Origin: Kayfunavirus CLBP1 | Reading direction: 5' to 3' (one strand) | DNA length: 40,216 bases | Sequence record: OZ035730.1 | In this document: positions 1,652-40,216 of the stretch, one piece after another | How the letters are laid out: every line of letters starts with the position of its first letter | Numbering within the stretch: position 1 is the stretch's first letter | Notes under the pieces: generated by a model | Database searches by the model: none | What the model saw: the letters and a program-made list of their open reading frames with translations, nothing else | What the model was told of the DNA's origin: nothing | Translations under genes and position numbers: made by a program

Positions 1652-3415
1652 TTGAGTAAAGACTTAGTGGCGCGTCAGGCGCTAATGACTGCACGTATGA
1701 AGGCAGACTTCGTGTTCTTCCTGTTCGTCCTGTGGAAAGCTCTGTCACTCCCAGTCCCGACTCGCTGTCAGATTGACATGGCGAAGAAACTATCGGCTGG
1801 GGACAACAGGCGCTTCATCCTACAGGCGTTCCGTGGTATAGGGAAGTCCTTCATTACGTGTGCCTTCGTTGTCTGGAAGCTATGGAACAACCCAGACTTG
1901 AAGTTCATGATTGTGTCTGCCTCAAAGGAACGAGCCGATGCTAACTCCATCTTCATCAAGCGTATCATCGACCTCATGCCTCAGCTTCGGGAACTCAAAC
2001 CTAAGCAGGGACAGCGAGATGCGGTTATCAGCTTCGACGTTGGACCAGCCAAGCCAGACCACTCACCTTCGGTTAAGTCAGTTGGTATCACAGGTCAGTT
2101 GACTGGTAGTCGTGCTGACATCTTGATTGCCGATGACGTAGAGGTTCCGAACAACTCAGCGACTCAGGCTGCACGAGACCGTCTGTCAGAGCTTGTGAAA
2201 GAGTTCGACGCTATCCTGAAGCCGGGAGGTACAATCATCTATCTGGGTACTCCTCAGAACGAGATGACCTTGTATCGTGAGCTGGAAGGCCGTGGGTACA
2301 CCACTACTATCTGGCCTGCTCGTTATCCACGCGACAGGAAGGACTGGCAGTCTTACGGCGACCGTCTGGCACCGATGCTTCAGGCAGAGCTTGAAGAGGA
2401 CCCTGAGGCCTTCTACTGGCGTCCGACCGATGAAGTTCGCTTCGACGATACTGACCTGAAGGAACGTGAGCTGTCCTATGGTAAAGCTGGCTTCGCTCTA
2501 CAGTTCATGCTTAACCCGAACCTGAGTGATGCCGAGAAGTACCCTCTGAAGCTCCGTGACCTTATCGTAGCAGACTTGGACCCAGCATCCAGCCCAATGG
2601 TCTACCAATGGTTGCCTAACCCTCAGAACAAGCGTGAGGACGTTCCTAACGTTGGACTCATGGGCGACTCATACCACACGTACCAGACTGTAGGTTCTGC
2701 CTTCAGTTCGTACACCCAGAAGATTCTGGTCATTGACCCTAGCGGTCGTGGTAAGGATGAAACTGGTTATGCGGTACTGTATCAGCTCAACGGCTACATC
2801 TTCGCTATGGAAGTCGGAGGTATGCGTGGTGGTTATGAAGACTCTACTCTGGAAGCGCTAGCTAAGATTGGTCGTAAGTGGAAGGTCAACGAATACGTCA
2901 TTGAGGGTAACTTCGGTGATGGTATGTACCTTGAGCTATTCAAGCCTGTAGCGGCCCGTATCCATCCTGCGGCTGTAACTGAAGTGAAGAGTAAGGGTCA
3001 GAAAGAACTCCGCATCTGTGACGTTCTGGAGCCTATCATGGGGTCTCACAGACTTATCGTCAACGCTGCTGCTATCGTCCAAGACTATCAGACAGCCGCT
3101 GATAAGGATGGTGTTCGTAACCCTATCTACTCTCTCTTCTACCAGATGACACGTATCTCTCGTGAACGCGGAGCCTTGGCACACGATGACCGACTTGATG
3201 CGCTGGCTATCGGTGTACAGTTCTTCGTTGAGTCTATGGCTAAGGATGCCAACAAAGGCGAACGTGAAGTCACTGAGGAGTGGCTGGAGGAACAGATGGA
3301 GAACCCACGGAAAGGCTTCGAGTCCATCCACACTGAGTTCTGGGACAATGGGGTCCGGGTAACTCACAATACGGACGACGAGCTGGGACTAGGGGCTTAC
3401 GTTACGTTCCACTAG
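1652..3415 (+). CDS. Large terminase subunit (T7 gp19-like, DNA maturation protein B)
   Basis: 587 aa; TTG start with SD GAGGTG; long collinear match to T7 gp19 ([103 protein letters not shown]). Confidence 0.95.
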
Positions 3416-3505
3416 CTGAATAACTATAGGCGAAAACTGAATTAATAAGCAGTTAGTAACCTATAGTTACTACCAGTCTAACCTACTGTTTTACAAGGAG
3501 TTTGG

Positions 3506-3528
3506 ACTTAACTATCACTATAGGGAAG
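3506..3528 (+). promoter_or_regulatory. Phage RNAP promoter (phiOR-like)
   Basis: ACTTAACTATCACTATAGGGAAG, exact match to the core repeated 11 times; +1 G at 3523; position after gene 19 as T7 phiOR. Confidence 0.75.
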
Positions 3529-3708
3529 ACCCCCGGTTACTTATAGTATTACTGTAGTGAATATACATATGCAGACTTTATGCAAGACCTTAGGAGGCAG
3601 ACTCAGAGTTCTTACCTAAGGCTTGCACCGATGGAAGGAGGGTGATATTAATCATAATCCCTCCAATACAGATAGTCACCGACCATAGATACAGGAGGTA
3701 TGTAGCAT

Positions 3709-3867
3709 ATGGAAAAGACCAAAGCTGTACTTAAAGCTCTGGCGACCAATCGAGCTACATACAGGTTTCTTGCTGCTGTTCTACTTGCTGCTGGCGTTAC
3801 TGCTGGAAGTAAGTGGGTCGGGTGGGTCGAGACTCTCGTATGTTCTCTGGTGTCTGAGTGTAATTAA
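3709..3867 (+). CDS. Small hydrophobic protein (gp19.5-like by position)
   Basis: 52 aa hand-translated MEKTKAVLKALATNRATYRFLAAVLLAAGVTAGSKWVGWVETLVCSLVSECN; strong SD AGGAGG 8 nt upstream; downstream of the phiOR-like promoter as T7 gene 19.5. Confidence 0.5.
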   Translation: MEKTKAVLKALATNRATYRFLAAVLLAAGVTAGSKWVGWVETLVCSLVSECN

Positions 3868-4104
3868 CGCAATCATGGTAACAATCAACGAAAGCAAGAC
3901 CTAAGGTCAGTTCATAGCTGACGCTACTCTACTGACCTTAGCTACTGTAGTCAAGGACTTTAGGTAACACCTTAAGAGAAGCTCACTTAGGGTCATCCTA
4001 CTGATTGGTCTATCCTAGTGTCGCCTGACCTACGGTCCTTGACCTACAGTGGCTGTGGCCTACAGTAGTGACGATGAGTTTTGGACCAAAAGTTTGAGAC
4101 CACA

Positions 4105-4295
4105 TCTCACAGTTCAAGAACCTAAAGTCTCCCCATAGGCCCTCTTTCAGTCCAGACCAAAGGCCCTACCCCAGTCTATCATAAGGTTGGACCGATGGTC
4201 AAGACGTTAGGTCGACGATAGGTTGAGGCTATGGCTTAGGGAAGGACGATAGGTTGGGACTATTGGTCTTCTTTGAGTCTCTATCTGTATAACCA
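4105..4295. repeat. Probable physical genome terminus and terminal-repeat region (one collapsed copy)
   Basis: TCTCACAGTTCAAGAACCTAAAGTCTCCCCATAGG at 4105 closely resembles the first bases of the T7 left end; GTCTCTATCTGTA near 4280 resembles the end of the T7 terminal repeat. Boundaries are approximate. Confidence 0.4.
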
Positions 4296-4440
4296 TAGGT
4301 CCTACAACCATAGGTCTAACAACCTACAGTCTCACTAACCTACAGTCACAACCATAAGACACTGACATCCTACAGTCATAGACATACAGCTAATAGACAC
4401 AAAGCCATAGACTTAAGGTCTAAGACATGTTAGTCAAAGA
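4296..4440. repeat. Array of short imperfect direct repeats (ACCATAGGTC / ACCTACAGTC family)
   Basis: Tandem-like recurrences AACCATAGGTCCTACAACCATAGGTCTAACAACCTACAGTCTCACTAACCTACAGTCACAACCATAAGAC; positional analogue of the CCTAAAG repeats after the T7 terminal repeat. Confidence 0.5.
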
Positions 4441-4694
4441 CTATATCCTCTTAGTCACTATGGGGCCGACGATAGCTTAATCAATATTATTTCAAATTAC
4501 CTATTGACTATATGTCCAGACTATGGCCTAATAGCTTCCGTCAACACGACACGGCAGTAAACGCTAGGTAACTAGCAACGACTCACCGAGATGGTGACTC
4601 ACAGTAGGTCAGGACGATAGGTTGAATGGTCTAGCCAGTACGGAAGATTGCAGAAGGAACTAAGCGTACCGACCTCAGAGCTGAAAGAAAGTAG

Positions 4695-4723
4695 TTGACA
4701 AGTAGTAAGACTTAACGTAGTAT
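4695..4723 (+). promoter_or_regulatory. Host sigma70 early promoter (T7 A3-like)
   Basis: TTGACA (4695-4700), 17-nt spacer, TAGTAT (4718-4723); downstream GTACCACAT resembles the T7 A3 promoter region. Confidence 0.6.
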
Positions 4724-4808
4724 GTACCACATCAACGAGAAACAATCCGGTAAAGTGCAATATATAAGGTGGTGCAATGGAGCAACGCCTATTAATGAGG
4801 GTAGCATC

Positions 4809-5042
4809 ATGATCAACCAAATCAAAACTACTAAATCAAATGTTAACGGCAACGTTTCTCACTTTATCGGTGATAACGAAAGAGGCACACCATACGCCGC
4901 CGTAACCGTGCAACCAAATGGCGATTATTGGTTTACCGTGTATGGATCATACTCTTTTGGACGTCCGGCGCATGATAAGATCTTGCAAGCGGTTAAGCCT
5001 ACAGGGAAGAATATTACAGCAGAAAAGTTTTATAAAAAGTAG
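4809..5042 (+). CDS. Hypothetical small protein (77 aa), AT-rich early gene upstream of ocr
   Basis: ATG with GAGG 7 nt upstream; MINQIKTTKSNVNGNVSHFIGDNERGTPYAAVTVQPNGDYWFTVYGSYSFGRPAHDKILQAVKPTGKNITAEKFYKK; visibly more AT-rich than the flanking genes. Track start 4722 overlaps the promoter -10 and has no SD. Confidence 0.5.
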   Translation: MINQIKTTKSNVNGNVSHFIGDNERGTPYAAVTVQPNGDYWFTVYGSYSFGRPAHDKILQAVKPTGKNITAEKFYKK

Positions 5043-36600: not shown

Positions 36601-37563
36601 TTAGATGCTGGACGTCAAGGCTTCCTGTCTGACATCGTGGAGCATAGCCTGACTGGTAGTAAGCGTAAGTTCGATGACCGATGGCTGAAGACCGCTGGTA
36701 TCTCTGACGAGCAGTGGAATGGAATTAAGTCCCTAATCCGTGAGTCAGTGACTCGTGGTCCAGACGGGAAGTATACCATCAAGGATAAGAAGGCGTTCAG
36801 TCAGGACCCAAGGGCTATGGACCTGTGGCGTATGGGCGACACCATCGCTGACGAAACGTTACTCCGTCCTCATAAGCTGAGCAACATGGACGCCAAGGCT
36901 TATGGTCCTCTGGCTAAGACTGTCCTTCAGTTTAAGAACTTCGTCATCAAGTCCATCAATGGGCGTACCATGCGAACCTTCTATAACGCCACGAAGAACA
37001 ACCGAGCGATGGATGCTGCTCTGTCCACTGTGATGTCTATGGGTCTTGCTGGTATCTACTACATGGCTCAGGCACACATCAAGGCTTACGCTATGCAGGA
37101 TGGTCGTGACCGTGAGTACCTGAAGCAGGCCCTGAACCCTACGATGATTGGCTATGCCGCTCTGTCCCGTAGCTCCCACTTGGGTGGACCACTTGGGGTC
37201 GCTAACATTCTTGGTGGTATCGCTGGGTATGAGGACACTAAGATGCTCCGTTCATCTATCCTGCCCCGTTCGCCTACAGAGAAGCCTGAACGTGCCATCG
37301 CGTATGGTGCAGCTACAAGTGACCCTGTGATGAATGTTGTTGGTAACTTCTTGGAGCAGGTTCCAGCTTTCGGATATGCTGCTAACGTTGGCGCTTCGGC
37401 TTACAACTTGGCTGGCTACCTCAAGGCTGATACTCGTGTCAACGAGCGTGACTACATGACCGGGATGTATAATACGTTCCGTGAACTGGTTCCGAACGAC
37501 CCAATTACCCAGAAGCTGTTGCTTGGAACGTTTGAGGAGCAAGGTATCCACATCAAGGACTAA
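33676..37563 (+). CDS. Internal core protein D (T7 gp16-like, N-terminal lytic transglycosylase-type domain)
   Basis: 1295 aa; N-terminal segment GIRNNNPGNIR...AISFHETG; size and position as T7 gp16. Confidence 0.95.
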   Translation: MATRGIRNNNPGNIRVSKDQWEGMTGDDGAFVTFDSPESGVRALGKNLLSYGRQGYDSIEKIINRWAPPNENDTKAYIDSVVAATGIPATQSLDLSDPDTLSSLAQAISFHETGSRYDPEVYQKGVARALNGISPKTPPVSANVFDALTEGLKSKPKVSLGENLPTAAGLNIEGQAPEAPNESFGEMFYKATGETMQEREERSTWFGFGSATEAEVKNSMVGVAIRAGQTEDSLDVIGDVFNPTRWNNHKWSREELDQIRNAGVLPQYYGVITGGSPQNLTELINLALENQKLDAEKSKAGTGAQLAAGVIGAGVDPLTYVPIAGQVGKGGKLVNKMFTVAAQSGALAGASELARTSVAGGDAYVAEAIMGGALFGGGMTAIGDAIGKALGKSTNEFAGPATRLEARETARNVDGQDLSRLPIQEGEQTFSHQGVKFADVPNEPGSVRLEDGSILIGENPLNPKTRQVFDEVIEPERAAAGVNLGGLTEIGLKLLRSENPEIRGVAADLVRSPTGMQSGASGKIGTTASDVFERLRAVDHRFYNDIDDAVTEALKDPYFQTAFWRDSGAFRQDIYQRVSMAIEDGSGNLKSELTPGELKVYDLLKNQFDAKREMMENPAMFGRPDAQSIFPGSRFKGTYVPHVYSKQMKELYIKELGSPEALQEAIKKSWLTSYASRPEVKKRVDEALLEADPTLTPEGLAAAVDKYANDKAYGISHTEQFERSSVMEENINGLVGLENNSFLEARNLFDSDMSIVLPNGQTFSVNNLREWDMDKIVPAYNRRVNGDIAIMAGTGKTTKEMKDLVETMMNKAGDDGKLKGEVSTLRDTLKILTGRARRDGADDAAFATVMRTMTDLSFFAKNAYMGVQNLTEIGGMLARGNVRALLHGVPIFRDLAFRNKKVGASEIKDLHNVIFGKELDDSIRPSKQDVIDRLRAYSALSKPTATALGSAKYYTGELAVRSPFTKVLNGTTNYLLDAGRQGFLSDIVEHSLTGSKRKFDDRWLKTAGISDEQWNGIKSLIRESVTRGPDGKYTIKDKKAFSQDPRAMDLWRMGDTIADETLLRPHKLSNMDAKAYGPLAKTVLQFKNFVIKSINGRTMRTFYNATKNNRAMDAALSTVMSMGLAGIYYMAQAHIKAYAMQDGRDREYLKQALNPTMIGYAALSRSSHLGGPLGVANILGGIAGYEDTKMLRSSILPRSPTEKPERAIAYGAATSDPVMNVVGNFLEQVPAFGYAANVGASAYNLAGYLKADTRVNERDYMTGMYNTFRELVPNDPITQKLLLGTFEEQGIHIKD

Positions 37564-37581
37564 ACTATCACTATAGGAAAC
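37559..37581 (+). promoter_or_regulatory. Phage RNAP promoter (phi17-like)
   Basis: ACTAAACTATCACTATAGGAAAC; overlaps gp16 3' end; +1 G at 37576. Confidence 0.8.
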
Positions 37582-37627
37582 GGGAGGCGCTACCATAGGT
37601 CTCCATTTAAATCACAAAGGAGGCATA

Positions 37628-39904
37628 ATGTCCACGATTACACAATTCCCTTCAGGAAACACTCAGTACAGGATTGAGTTCGACTACCTAGCCAGAACGT
37701 TTGTTGTTGTTACGCTGGTGAATAGCTCTAACCCTACCCTTAACCGTGTACTGGAAGTTGGTCGAGATTACCGATTCCTTAATCCAACGATGATTGAGAT
37801 GTTGGTTGACCAATCAGGTTTCGACATCGTTCGTATTCACCGTCAGACTGGAACTGACTTAGTGGTAGACTTCAGGAATGGCTCAGTGTTGACAGCTAGC
37901 GACCTGACCAATGCAGAGCTTCAGGCTATCCATATTGCAGAAGAAGGTCGAGACCAAACGGTTGACTTAGCGAAGGAATATGCCGATGCTGCTGGTGACT
38001 CTGCTGGCAACGCTAAGGATAGCGAGGACGAAGCACGACGAATCGCTGAGAGTATCAAGGCAGCTGGTCGAATTGGCTATATTACCCGTCGCTCCTTCGA
38101 GAAAGGCTTCAACGTTACAACATGGAACGAGGTCCTGTTATGGGAAGAGGATGGTGAGTATTACCGCTGGGATGGTACGCTTCCAAAGAACGTTCCTGCT
38201 GGTTCAACTCCTAACACCGCTGGGGGCATTGGTTTAGGTGCGTGGGTTGGCGTTGGTGATGCATCATTGCGCAGCAATTTATCAGAAAATGATGGCGCCT
38301 TGATAGTAGGTGGAGCTATTCTTGAATGCCAAACGGTAGCACAGGCGCAAGAGATATCTGGTTTAACGGAAGGTCGAAAGGTAAGAACATACTATTATAA
38401 TGTCCCAGTTGTAACAGATTGGGTGTTCACCCCCACCGCGCCGTCCGGTGGGGTTTTCTACATTCCCGCTGTCGGTGGTTACTTGATATTAATGACGCCT
38501 AACTTCGCTTCCGCTGGCATTATTGAAGGTGAATATGTTCCGCTAAACGCCGCACATAACCGTAATGTAATTCAAAAACTGGTAAGAGACACAAGATTCA
38601 GTAAATTTGAATATGGAGCAACAGGTACTTTTTATGTTCTCGGCTCTATTCATCCATTACGAGATAATATAGAAATACACCACGAAGCTGGGGTTACAGT
38701 TATGGGGCGTTACGATGACCCCACGGTAGGTCCAGAAATTATGGGGTTAAACTCCGGCGGTATGTGGTCCTTTGCACACTTTCTCAACCCTGATGCAACG
38801 GTTTGGGATGACAATAACTACACAATTACAGCTGTTATGAAAAATGTTACCTACGTTCTTAACGGAAAGATAGGTACAGAATATAACTCCATTCATTCTA
38901 AACCGCACAACAACAACCCTATTGGTTTCTTTACTTGTGAAAACTGTAGCGTTGTCGGCTCTGGCGGGGTTATTGGGTCTGACCACAGAGGCATTAACGT
39001 AGATGGTGCAGGGGATAATTGCCGTATAGATATCGGGTACGCTACAGGAACCAGCAACAACCCGATTCAAATGAAAATAAACGCTGAACGCTACGCTTTT
39101 GTTAAAGTTGGTGCGGTCTATGGGGTTAAGTTTGATGGCGGTCAAACAAAGGCTGTGGTGTGGTGCGGCGGTGGGCGTGTTGATGTAGAAGTCGGTAACT
39201 ACAGGTGGGATGGGGTGAATAAACCAATCCTCGCTTACGGCAACGGTTGCCAGGAAATAACTTTAAAGGCTGGCATAATATCCGGCGTTTCGCAATTAAT
39301 ACGTCAGTACAATACCCCTGTAGCTAGAGTTCTGTCAGCATGGGTTAATAATACAGACTCTCTCATAAACAAAGCAGAAGATTCTGACAAGGAAGGTGTG
39401 ACCAAGATTTCTGAGATTCGAGGTGTGAACGCCGTCGACACGGTACTAACTAGCGCATTCTATGATGAAACGAAATTAGCGAATCAAGATGTTGTTACTA
39501 TAACCGGAAACGATTTCAGAAACGCTGGACCATCATTCCTTTACTTTAAAGGTAAAACAGCTGGTGGTGCTATTAGGTTGTGGAACGTTAATAACAACCT
39601 CGACCCTGTAGGTCTTGCGGACCTTTCAGACTGGAATATTTTGCTGGGGCAAAGTGTCGTTACTACAGTTTCAGCAACTTCTTTCACGTACACTATGTCC
39701 CGTAGATATGAAAATATCACAATTGCCGTAACGGAATCCGCCACCCTACGGTATGTTACGGTTAGCTTACGAGCGCACCTGTCGTCGTCAACTACGGCGT
39801 CATACATAGTCGGCGGCACGTCTATGACTGTCTCGAGGTCCGGCGATATTTTTACTTTTACGGTTAACTCCGGAACTATAAATTTTTACGTATTACATAA
39901 CTAA
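37628..39904 (+). CDS. Tail fibre / tailspike: gp17-like N-terminal anchor plus distinct C-terminal domain
   Basis: First ~150 aa resemble T7 gp17 N-terminus ([42 protein letters not shown]); from about 38270 the DNA becomes AT-rich and the protein is Gly/Asn/Val/Thr-rich and unlike T7 gp17. Confidence 0.85.
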
Positions 39905-39911
39905 AAAACAA

Positions 39912-39931
39912 AACCCCGCTTCGGTGGGGTT
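39912..39931 (+). terminator. Hairpin with UUCG tetraloop after the tail fibre gene
   Basis: AACCCCGC, UUCG loop, GUGGGGUU; weak U-tract (AGUUUAUC); could be a terminator or RNA 3'-end stabiliser. Confidence 0.4.
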
Positions 39932-40054
39932 AGTTTATCATCAGAAGGGGGTATTGAATCATCGAAGGTTGTGGAGGTAGAGGCTAACTACACGCTGACC
40001 AACGTATGGTAACAACTTTGGGTCACGGACGACCCGCTTTAAACTGGAGGTTTT

Positions 40055-40216
40055 ATGATTGAGTTAGACTTCAAGAATGAGGTCCTTAAAGCCTCTCCTA
40101 TCGTCGGGACCGCTGCGGCTGATGGTGCCAGTCGGTTCTTCTTCGGACTTACACTGAACGAATGGTTCTACGTTGCAGCTATCGCGTACACCGTTGTCCA
40201 GATTGGTGTGCTAGTC
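40055..40216 (+). CDS. Class II holin (T7 gp17.5-like), 3' end beyond the window
   Basis: SD GGAGG upstream; MIELDFKNEVLKASPIVGTAAADGASRFFFGLTLNEWFYVAAIAYTVVQIGVLV matches remembered T7 gp17.5; open to the last base. Confidence 0.85.
   Translation, partial: MIELDFKNEVLKASPIVGTAAADGASRFFFGLTLNEWFYVAAIAYTVVQIGVLV

Follow-up and report, generated by a model that had tools for sequence, protein, structure and literature searches.

We conclude with good confidence that gene 17 of the Kayfunavirus CLB_P1 encodes a 758-residue tailspike in which a Kayfunavirus anchor carries an acquired beta-helix cassette that binds, and probably cleaves, the O104 polymer, with a host range of O104. A mosaic spike of this kind is textbook, and both the specificity and the modular origin have been published for CLB_P1 (Pas et al. 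2023); what is new here are the exact coordinates of the junctions, a quantified composition shift, the distribution of the cassette behind three anchors and the evidence for a single open reading frame. The DNA analysed (the window, 40,216 nucleotides) is the whole ~40.2-kb CLB_P1 genome, rotated relative to GenBank KC109329.1 (CLB_P1; Autographiviridae, Studiervirinae, Kayfunavirus), which the gene matches at 99.9% over its full length by megablast. The exact 758-aa protein is also found in public collections, and a close relative, P0047 (758 aa, 94% identical), is encoded with conserved gene order on a second Kayfunavirus-like contig of 39.9 kb.

Anchor, junctions and composition of gene 17

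In the KC109329.1 annotation and in relatives, gene 17 lies between the gene for the internal virion protein gp16 and those for holin/terminase, as part of a late operon of T7 type. The gene, its signals and the features that divide it are as follows.

37555..37579, + strand: copy of the phage-RNA-polymerase promoter motif CTAAACTATCACTATAGGAA, overlapping the gene 16 stop codon directly 5' of gene 17
37617..37623, + strand: Shine-Dalgarno AAGGAGG, 4 nt 5' of the ATG (read from the sequence)
37628..39904, + strand: gene 17, a continuous open reading frame for the 758-aa tailspike (ORF list)
37655..37987, + strand: T7 gp17-type N-terminal tail-attachment domain, aa 10-120 (PF03906 Phage_T7_tail, E 1.5e-15)
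38081..38260, + strand: Tail_spike_N domain, aa 152-211, a second genus-conserved anchor domain (PF18668, E 4.5e-19)
38262..38306, + strand: 5' recombination junction in the linker, aa ~212-227, with IVGG on its 3' side
39907..39969, + strand: 3' recombination junction just past the stop at 39904, where Kayfunavirus backbone similarity resumes
39912..39931, + strand: GC-rich, terminator-like hairpin AACCCCGCTTCGGTGGGGTT, 8 nt past the stop and inside the 3' junction (terminator-like scan)

The motif upstream of the gene belongs to a direct-repeat family (D1, ~25 nt) with 10 copies genome-wide, and from the T7-like layout the copy at 37555..37579 would act as a promoter; the Shine-Dalgarno of gene 17 is strong. 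Rfam gave zero structured-RNA matches in 37000-40216, and sigma-70 promoters showed no enrichment (3 seen against 4.5 expected). Minus-strand and nested ORFs inside the gene (e.g. 38747-39145, 132 aa) are unsupported and were treated as spurious, because, over the 12.9 kb examined, every annotated gene is on a single strand.

Judged by domain matches and conservation, aa 1-~222 are the genus-conserved tail-attachment head of Kayfunavirus. PF03906 scores 57.7 bits against a gathering cut-off of 25.2, and the T7 gp17 chains 7boz, 8dsp and 8e4g in PDB align to aa 6-125; PF18668 scores 68.8 bits (cut-off 25), and its region also matches the N-terminal domains of CBA120 TSP1/3/4 and of G7C gp63.1 in a PDB sequence search. 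The Kayfunavirus-type spike 9vvr (18 chains) is near-identical to aa 1-226 (E 1e-135), and a match confined to the anchor (gene nt 1-~645, 94-96% nucleotide identity) was returned by megablast for 160 of the 162 phage records. The spike is presumably trimeric and, from the biology of P22, HK620, CBA120 and T7, the combined T7 gp17-type and Tail_spike_N anchor would hold six such trimers on the tail, for which the 18 chains of 9vvr give indirect support.

The limits of the cassette were located by pairwise blastn and megablast. On the 5' side, similarity to the backbone phage Baskent_phicoli_1 ends at 38295, similarity to a prophage of E. coli 55989 starts at 38294 and that to a siphovirus-type contig at 38306, and the megablast matches mostly end at gene nt 635-655. 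On the 3' side, siphovirus-contig similarity stops at 39908, megablast matches restart at 39907-39927 and that of Baskent_phicoli_1 at 39969. The cassette would have been recombined in at two points, the linker that follows Tail_spike_N and the sequence just past the stop codon; Pas et al. discuss recombination at conserved motifs on either side of RBDs, and describe a conserved terminator-like 20-nt motif 3' of RBP genes (PMC10408124).

The ~1.6 kb between the junctions is compositionally foreign, with an AT-richness well beyond chance. Its GC content is 44.3%, within the lowest 0.7% of all 1632-nt genome windows, and its GC3 is 40.7%, compared with a mean of 55.6% (sd 3.6, minimum 48.9) among 544-codon blocks of the other 30 genes, none of which is as low; the synonymous-codon chi-square against genome usage is 253 for the cassette, versus 50 on average and at most 113 for the blocks. 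The encoded residues comprise 10.7% G, 10.3% V, 8.7% T and 8.1% N. An earlier note on this DNA had delimited the same reading frame exactly and had set a break at about 38270, which is right to ~30 nt; it had further described AT-richer DNA and a Gly/Asn/Val/Thr-rich protein beyond that point, both of which we recover, and the GC and codon-usage comparison that it proposed returns a significant shift. Its likening of the first ~150 residues to T7 gp17 stands for the PF03906 domain at aa 10-120, and falls short in extent, since the presence of Tail_spike_N at aa 152-211, a domain that it missed, brings the conserved head to ~220 residues.

Fold and carriers of the cassette

A homologue search yielded 40 proteins, 35 of which were aligned with the window protein, and the AlphaFold model built from this alignment covers aa 145-758 as a monomer (model residue = protein residue minus 144) with a mean pLDDT of 90.3. 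The model runs from the Tail_spike_N beta domain through a short helical linker, a small alpha/beta domain, a cap helix and a beta-helix to a C-terminal beta-sandwich, and the acquired module accounts for three of the features.

38321..38494, + strand: small alpha/beta domain with which the acquired module opens, aa ~232-289 (AlphaFold secondary structure and pLDDT)
38540..39469, + strand: cap helix (aa 305-319) and right-handed parallel beta-helix running to ~614 in the AlphaFold model, together aa ~305-614, the presumed O104-binding/cleaving body
39485..39901, + strand: aa ~620-758, C-terminal beta-sandwich domain(s) close to those of the siphovirus contig and divergent from those of the prophage

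In this model the body of the spike is a right-handed parallel beta-helix (pectin-lyase fold). The best Foldseek matches are CBA120 TSP4/2/3, and the other fold matches are mostly enzymes or enzymatic tailspikes, glycosidase folds included. At the level of sequence, matches were found only in the N-terminal adaptor domains, the acquired body having no Pfam, NCBIfam or PDB sequence match (phmmer and profile search of PDB). Invariant polar residues in the beta-helix region include N311, R312, R323, R345, N428-N430, S451, D452, D459 and D604; the NNN at 428-430, the SDH at 451-453, D459, D364 and D604 do not vary even among homologues of only 30% identity, and D364, D452, D459, D604 and E614 are invariant or near-invariant in the homologue alignment. 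Conservation alone thus nominates N428-N430, S451-D452-H453, D459, D364, D604 and E614 as candidate active-site residues.

The cassette was found behind three or four different anchors. Among the 36 aligned proteins, Tail_spike_N is present in 20, a P22 head-binding domain in 5 and a T7-type domain in 2, the rest having no recognised N-terminal family; proteins with Tail_spike_N only also carry the cassette family, and homologues occur in Hafnia and Providencia. Of 5426 complete E. coli genomes, only 24 have the cassette at nucleotide level; among the matches listed, most are named O104:H4 strains, including the host 55989. In E. coli O104:H4 prophages the cassette lies behind a P22-type head-binding domain (86.7% nucleotide identity over 38294-39559), and in strain 55989 the copy (WP_000129896.1) is the tailspike of a remnant P22-like prophage, with an acyltransferase gene, intS and a tRNA-Arg gene as neighbours. 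The siphovirus-type contig carries a cassette 94% identical (92.7% nt over 38306-39908) behind yet another anchor, 5' of which are encoded tail-assembly chaperones, a tape-measure-sized protein (769 aa), DUF1833 and an 854-aa protein. The same cassette behind P22-type, siphovirus-contig and Tail_spike_N-only N-termini demonstrates directly, at the level of sequence comparison, the horizontal exchange of the receptor-binding part.

Comparison with the spike of the 55989 prophage suggests how old this exchange may be. Protein identity is ~0 in the anchor, 57-80% at aa 211-300 and 90-100% at aa 301-600, and falls to 23-57% after aa 630 (92% overall for aa 225-620, 96% for aa 301-600). At the nucleotide level the cores of phage and prophage are 92% identical, and the 55 codons that differ only synonymously, against 11 that change the amino acid, indicate purifying selection on the core, so that the alignment points to an old relationship maintained under such selection. 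A recent capture from the host's own prophage is ruled out, since nucleotide identity is only 87-92%, the differences are mostly synonymous and the 3' ~350 nt are not common to both. The GC3 of the prophage copy is 32%, and the CLB_P1 copy is therefore intermediate between it and the phage backbone.

The O104 polymer and its probable cleavage

The isolation host of CLB_P1 is the enteroaggregative E. coli O104:H4 strain 55989, and clones of the 2011 outbreak are infected as well (PMC3594211); a later study, citing Lourenco et al. 2022, reports that the phage targets the O104 O-antigen of 55989 (PMC11990801). The specificity of the related prophage spike was established by Scholl et al. 2012, who fused aa 114-659 of the outbreak-strain protein to an R-type pyocin; the resulting AvR2-O104 killed all O104 strains tested, including 55989, and one O9:K9 strain, with no other serogroup affected, and pyocin-resistant mutants had lost or shortened their LPS O-antigen (PMC3303846). 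Pas et al. 2023 place the CLB_P1 RBP in the O104 subtype, under a rule that asks for an RBD with at least 30% aa identity and at least 60% coverage to a validated member and for a host of that serogroup (PMC10408124). We find 78% identity and 100% coverage to P0003, the experimentally O104-specific prophage spike, and the published work documents an O104 host. The target polymer is the O-antigen, whose repeat is identical to that of the K9 capsule (PMC3303846), and not generic capsule.

The beta-helix would thus bind the sialic-acid-containing O104 O-antigen, and the cassette would set the host range to O104 strains. Since the C-terminal ~130 aa differ strongly from those of the tested prophage spike, this transfer of specificity rests on the beta-helix as the determinant. 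In these respects the analysis agrees with what the earlier note had anticipated for the C-terminal part, namely a horizontally exchanged receptor-binding domain, a beta-helical tailspike, for which the structure prediction and Foldseek search that it proposed gave tailspike and glycosidase fold matches, and a role in host range, which is upheld by the O104/K9 specificity of the homologue mounted on the pyocin and by the reported O104 targeting of CLB_P1 itself.

With regard to activity, the repeat contains an internal Neu5Ac that is substituted at C-4 by Gal (PMC9631793). By analogy with enzymatic tailspikes, we infer that the spike most likely cleaves the O104 polymer as an endoglycosidase, in line with the depolymerase activity that the earlier note had thought possible. 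With the polymer cut in this way, a virion with a short tail could advance across the LPS layer as far as the outer membrane, and DNA ejection would, from the biology of P22, HK620, CBA120 and T7, be triggered there. To our knowledge the O104 repeat is without uronic acid, and lyase chemistry is therefore unlikely. No cleavage assay of O104-subtype spikes was found in the literature searched. More tentatively, the beta-helix may be an endoglycosidase for an internal 4-substituted Neu5Ac polymer (O104/K9) lying outside the described glycoside-hydrolase families, a possibility that we put forward as short of probable; the sequence of the beta-helix has no counterpart in Pfam, NCBIfam or PDB. If true, this would add a new catalytic family and, beside the K1F beta-propeller, a second and structurally unrelated Kayfunavirus route against sialic-acid glycans, and the Hafnia and Providencia homologues would extend the activity to other sialylated or related O-antigens.

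The conserved residues also bear on whether the spike is an enzyme at all, as a beta-helix adhesin could bind the O104 O-antigen and leave it uncleaved, the LPS layer being penetrated by reversible binding only. We regard this as improbable: polar and acidic residues that are invariant down to 30% identity are the pattern expected of an active site, the fold comparison otherwise points mainly to enzymes or enzymatic tailspikes, and the podovirus beta-helix O-antigen spikes studied so far that we know of (P22, HK620, Sf6, CBA120) are all enzymes. Somewhat less probable again is that the relevant target is a K9-type (O-antigen) capsule and the spike a capsule depolymerase, as the identity of the two repeats and the killing of the O9:K9 strain by the homologous spike would allow (PMC3303846); the resistant O104 mutants, however, were altered in their LPS O-antigen, and a passage of PMC11990801 describes CLB_P1 as O-antigen dependent. 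A capsular target would hardly alter the mechanism, since the polymer would be the same and its anchoring alone would differ.

One polypeptide, and its relation to known spikes

In KC109329.1 the gene is annotated as two coding sequences, gp17 (325 aa, 'tail fiber') and gp17.1 (430 aa, 'hypothetical'), and Pas et al. 2023 read these as an adapter/RBD pair like those of SP6, K1-5 and KP34 (PMC10408124). The window differs from this record by one synonymous substitution at 38987 and at two frameshifting sites, defined by pairwise alignment and comparison with four relatives.

38574..38578, + strand: run of A5, which is A6 in KC109329.1 (first frameshifting difference)
38624..38626, + strand: GGT, which is GGTT in KC109329.1 (second frameshifting difference)

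The two extra bases in KC109329.1 are what break the gene into gp17 and gp17.1. All four relatives (the second Kayfunavirus-like 39.9-kb contig, the ECO104 4-5-2 phage contig, the 55989 prophage and the siphovirus contig) have the window version at both sites; the gene is a single ORF in the window and in these relatives, and is split in KC109329.1 only. A true division into an adapter gp17 and a separate receptor-binding gp17.1, although annotated, published and known in kind from SP6/K1-5/KP34-type phages, is highly improbable, given that the frame reads through in the window, that the relatives side with it, that the 17 residues between the sites are identical to homologues in the fused frame only, that a split at aa ~316-334 would cut through the cap helix and the first rung of the beta-helix, which are modelled at pLDDT ~95 and form no domain boundary, and that gp17.1 alone would be without an anchoring domain. 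Because four independent relatives share the fused frame, the split in the 2012-13 record most probably reflects an error of sequencing; that two mutations arose very recently is much less likely.

Correcting the two-protein reading in the public record and in the 2023 paper is the practical gain of this work, and matters for cloning, modelling and classifying the spike as one polypeptide. The wider interest is already in the literature: gut-decolonisation experiments against O104:H4 E. coli have employed CLB_P1, whose host range the cassette would set, and the cassette could serve engineered phages or tailocins as a ready-made O104-targeting module.

Among known systems, the P22-like (Lederbergvirus-type) prophage spike (EGR74047 / WP_000129896.1) has the same beta-helix receptor-binding body, but its own N-terminus is the P22 head-binding domain PF09008, in place of the T7-type anchor and Tail_spike_N of CLB_P1, and its last ~130 aa are only 23-57% identical. 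The opposite holds for the gp17 spikes of other Kayfunavirus phages (K1F, Baskent_phicoli_1, 9vvr), in which the anchor is near-identical and the gene site between gp16 and holin and the promoter context are alike, whereas the Baskent_phicoli_1 spike has 7-30% identity to CLB_P1 past aa ~225 and is unrelated there in sequence, and K1F-type phages (e.g. vB_EcoP_F) match gene nt 1-635 only. The K1F spike is a beta-propeller endosialidase with a cleaved C-terminal chaperone; CLB_P1 does not belong to this type (GH58), as Pfam gave no endosialidase family match and the model predicts a beta-helix. T7 gp17 has the PF03906 attachment domain and the gene position in common with the CLB_P1 spike. Finally, the spikes of CBA120 (TSP2-4), HK620, P22 and Sf6 resemble that of CLB_P1 in combining adaptor domain(s), a beta-helix and a C-terminal beta-sandwich, and the Tail_spike_N domain of the CBA120 proteins is homologous to its own; their beta-helices are nonetheless without detectable sequence similarity to that of CLB_P1, whose Neu5Ac-containing substrate differs from those of all four.

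Reading frame of gene 17 and its upstream repeat

In the window, the tailspike gene is read as a single uninterrupted frame:
37628-39904 (+), gene 17, 758-aa tailspike

The public GenBank record of CLB_P1 (KC109329.1) carries two additional bases, at ~34303 and ~34357 (window 38574-38578 and 38624-38626), which break gene 17 into gp17 and gp17.1. At both sites the frame is also uninterrupted in four relatives, namely a second Kayfunavirus-like contig, the ECO104 4-5-2 phage contig, the E. coli 55989 prophage and a siphovirus contig. The 'split RBP' interpretation of a 2023 paper rested on KC109329.1 (PMC10408124). Immediately 5' of gene 17, overlapping the gene 16 stop codon, lies one copy of a ~25-nt repeat family, CTAAACTATCACTATAGG(G/A)A, found at 10 sites across window 3502-37579; these repeats are presumably promoters for the phage RNA polymerase.

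Composition of the cassette and the tailspike of the host prophage

The host's own O104-type tailspike is contained in a P22-like prophage remnant of E. coli 55989 (L002:5620-9580), where it directly adjoins an acyltransferase-family gene, intS and tRNA-Arg. This acyltransferase-family gene is a possible O-antigen modification gene, and such modification, if true, could alter how susceptible lysogens are to O104-type spikes. GC3 rises from 32% in the prophage copy (L002:5962-7599) through 40.7% in the phage cassette (38273-39901) to 55.6% in the phage backbone, and the intermediate value of the cassette fits either partial amelioration or a different donor. Relative to the prophage spike, the beta-helix retains >90% identity while the C-terminal beta-sandwich (window 39485-39901) shows 23-57%, a drop near aa 620-630 which is a second mosaic boundary, internal to the cassette. 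A conserved ...HN forms the C-terminal end in all homologues.

Other AT-rich or possibly acquired DNA

The sole other stretch of the genome matching the AT-richness of the cassette is a 1632-nt segment of 43.4% GC at 3411-5042, including an ORF (4722-5042) of 41.5% GC. Once the shift in numbering between the window and KC109329.1 is applied, this segment matches the ends of the GenBank genome and its early region. In addition, one gene looks like another acquired gene of CLB_P1, besides the cassette:
849-1640, gene 18.8, 'putative protease', 263 aa, GC3 46%

On one side of gene 18.8 is the Rz-like lysis gene, on the other the large terminase. It is annotated in GenBank as similar to an E. coli O127:H6 protein, and is missing from both the close relative on contig L005 and Baskent_phicoli_1 (L003).

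Homologues of the cassette elsewhere

On an ENA metagenome contig (L006:7742-9754), an O104-type cassette at 94% identity, preceded by an anchor without a Pfam match, lies in a siphovirus-type tail gene cluster comprising chaperones, a tape-measure-sized protein (769 aa), DUF1833 and an 854-aa protein. Furthermore, cassette homologues at 57-71% identity (P0006, P0011 and P0012) come from Hafnia paralvei and Providencia genomes. Since an O-antigen containing sialic acid has been reported for a Hafnia alvei strain (PMC9631793), these homologues raise the prospect that the cassette subfamily may follow sialylated O-antigens from genus to genus.
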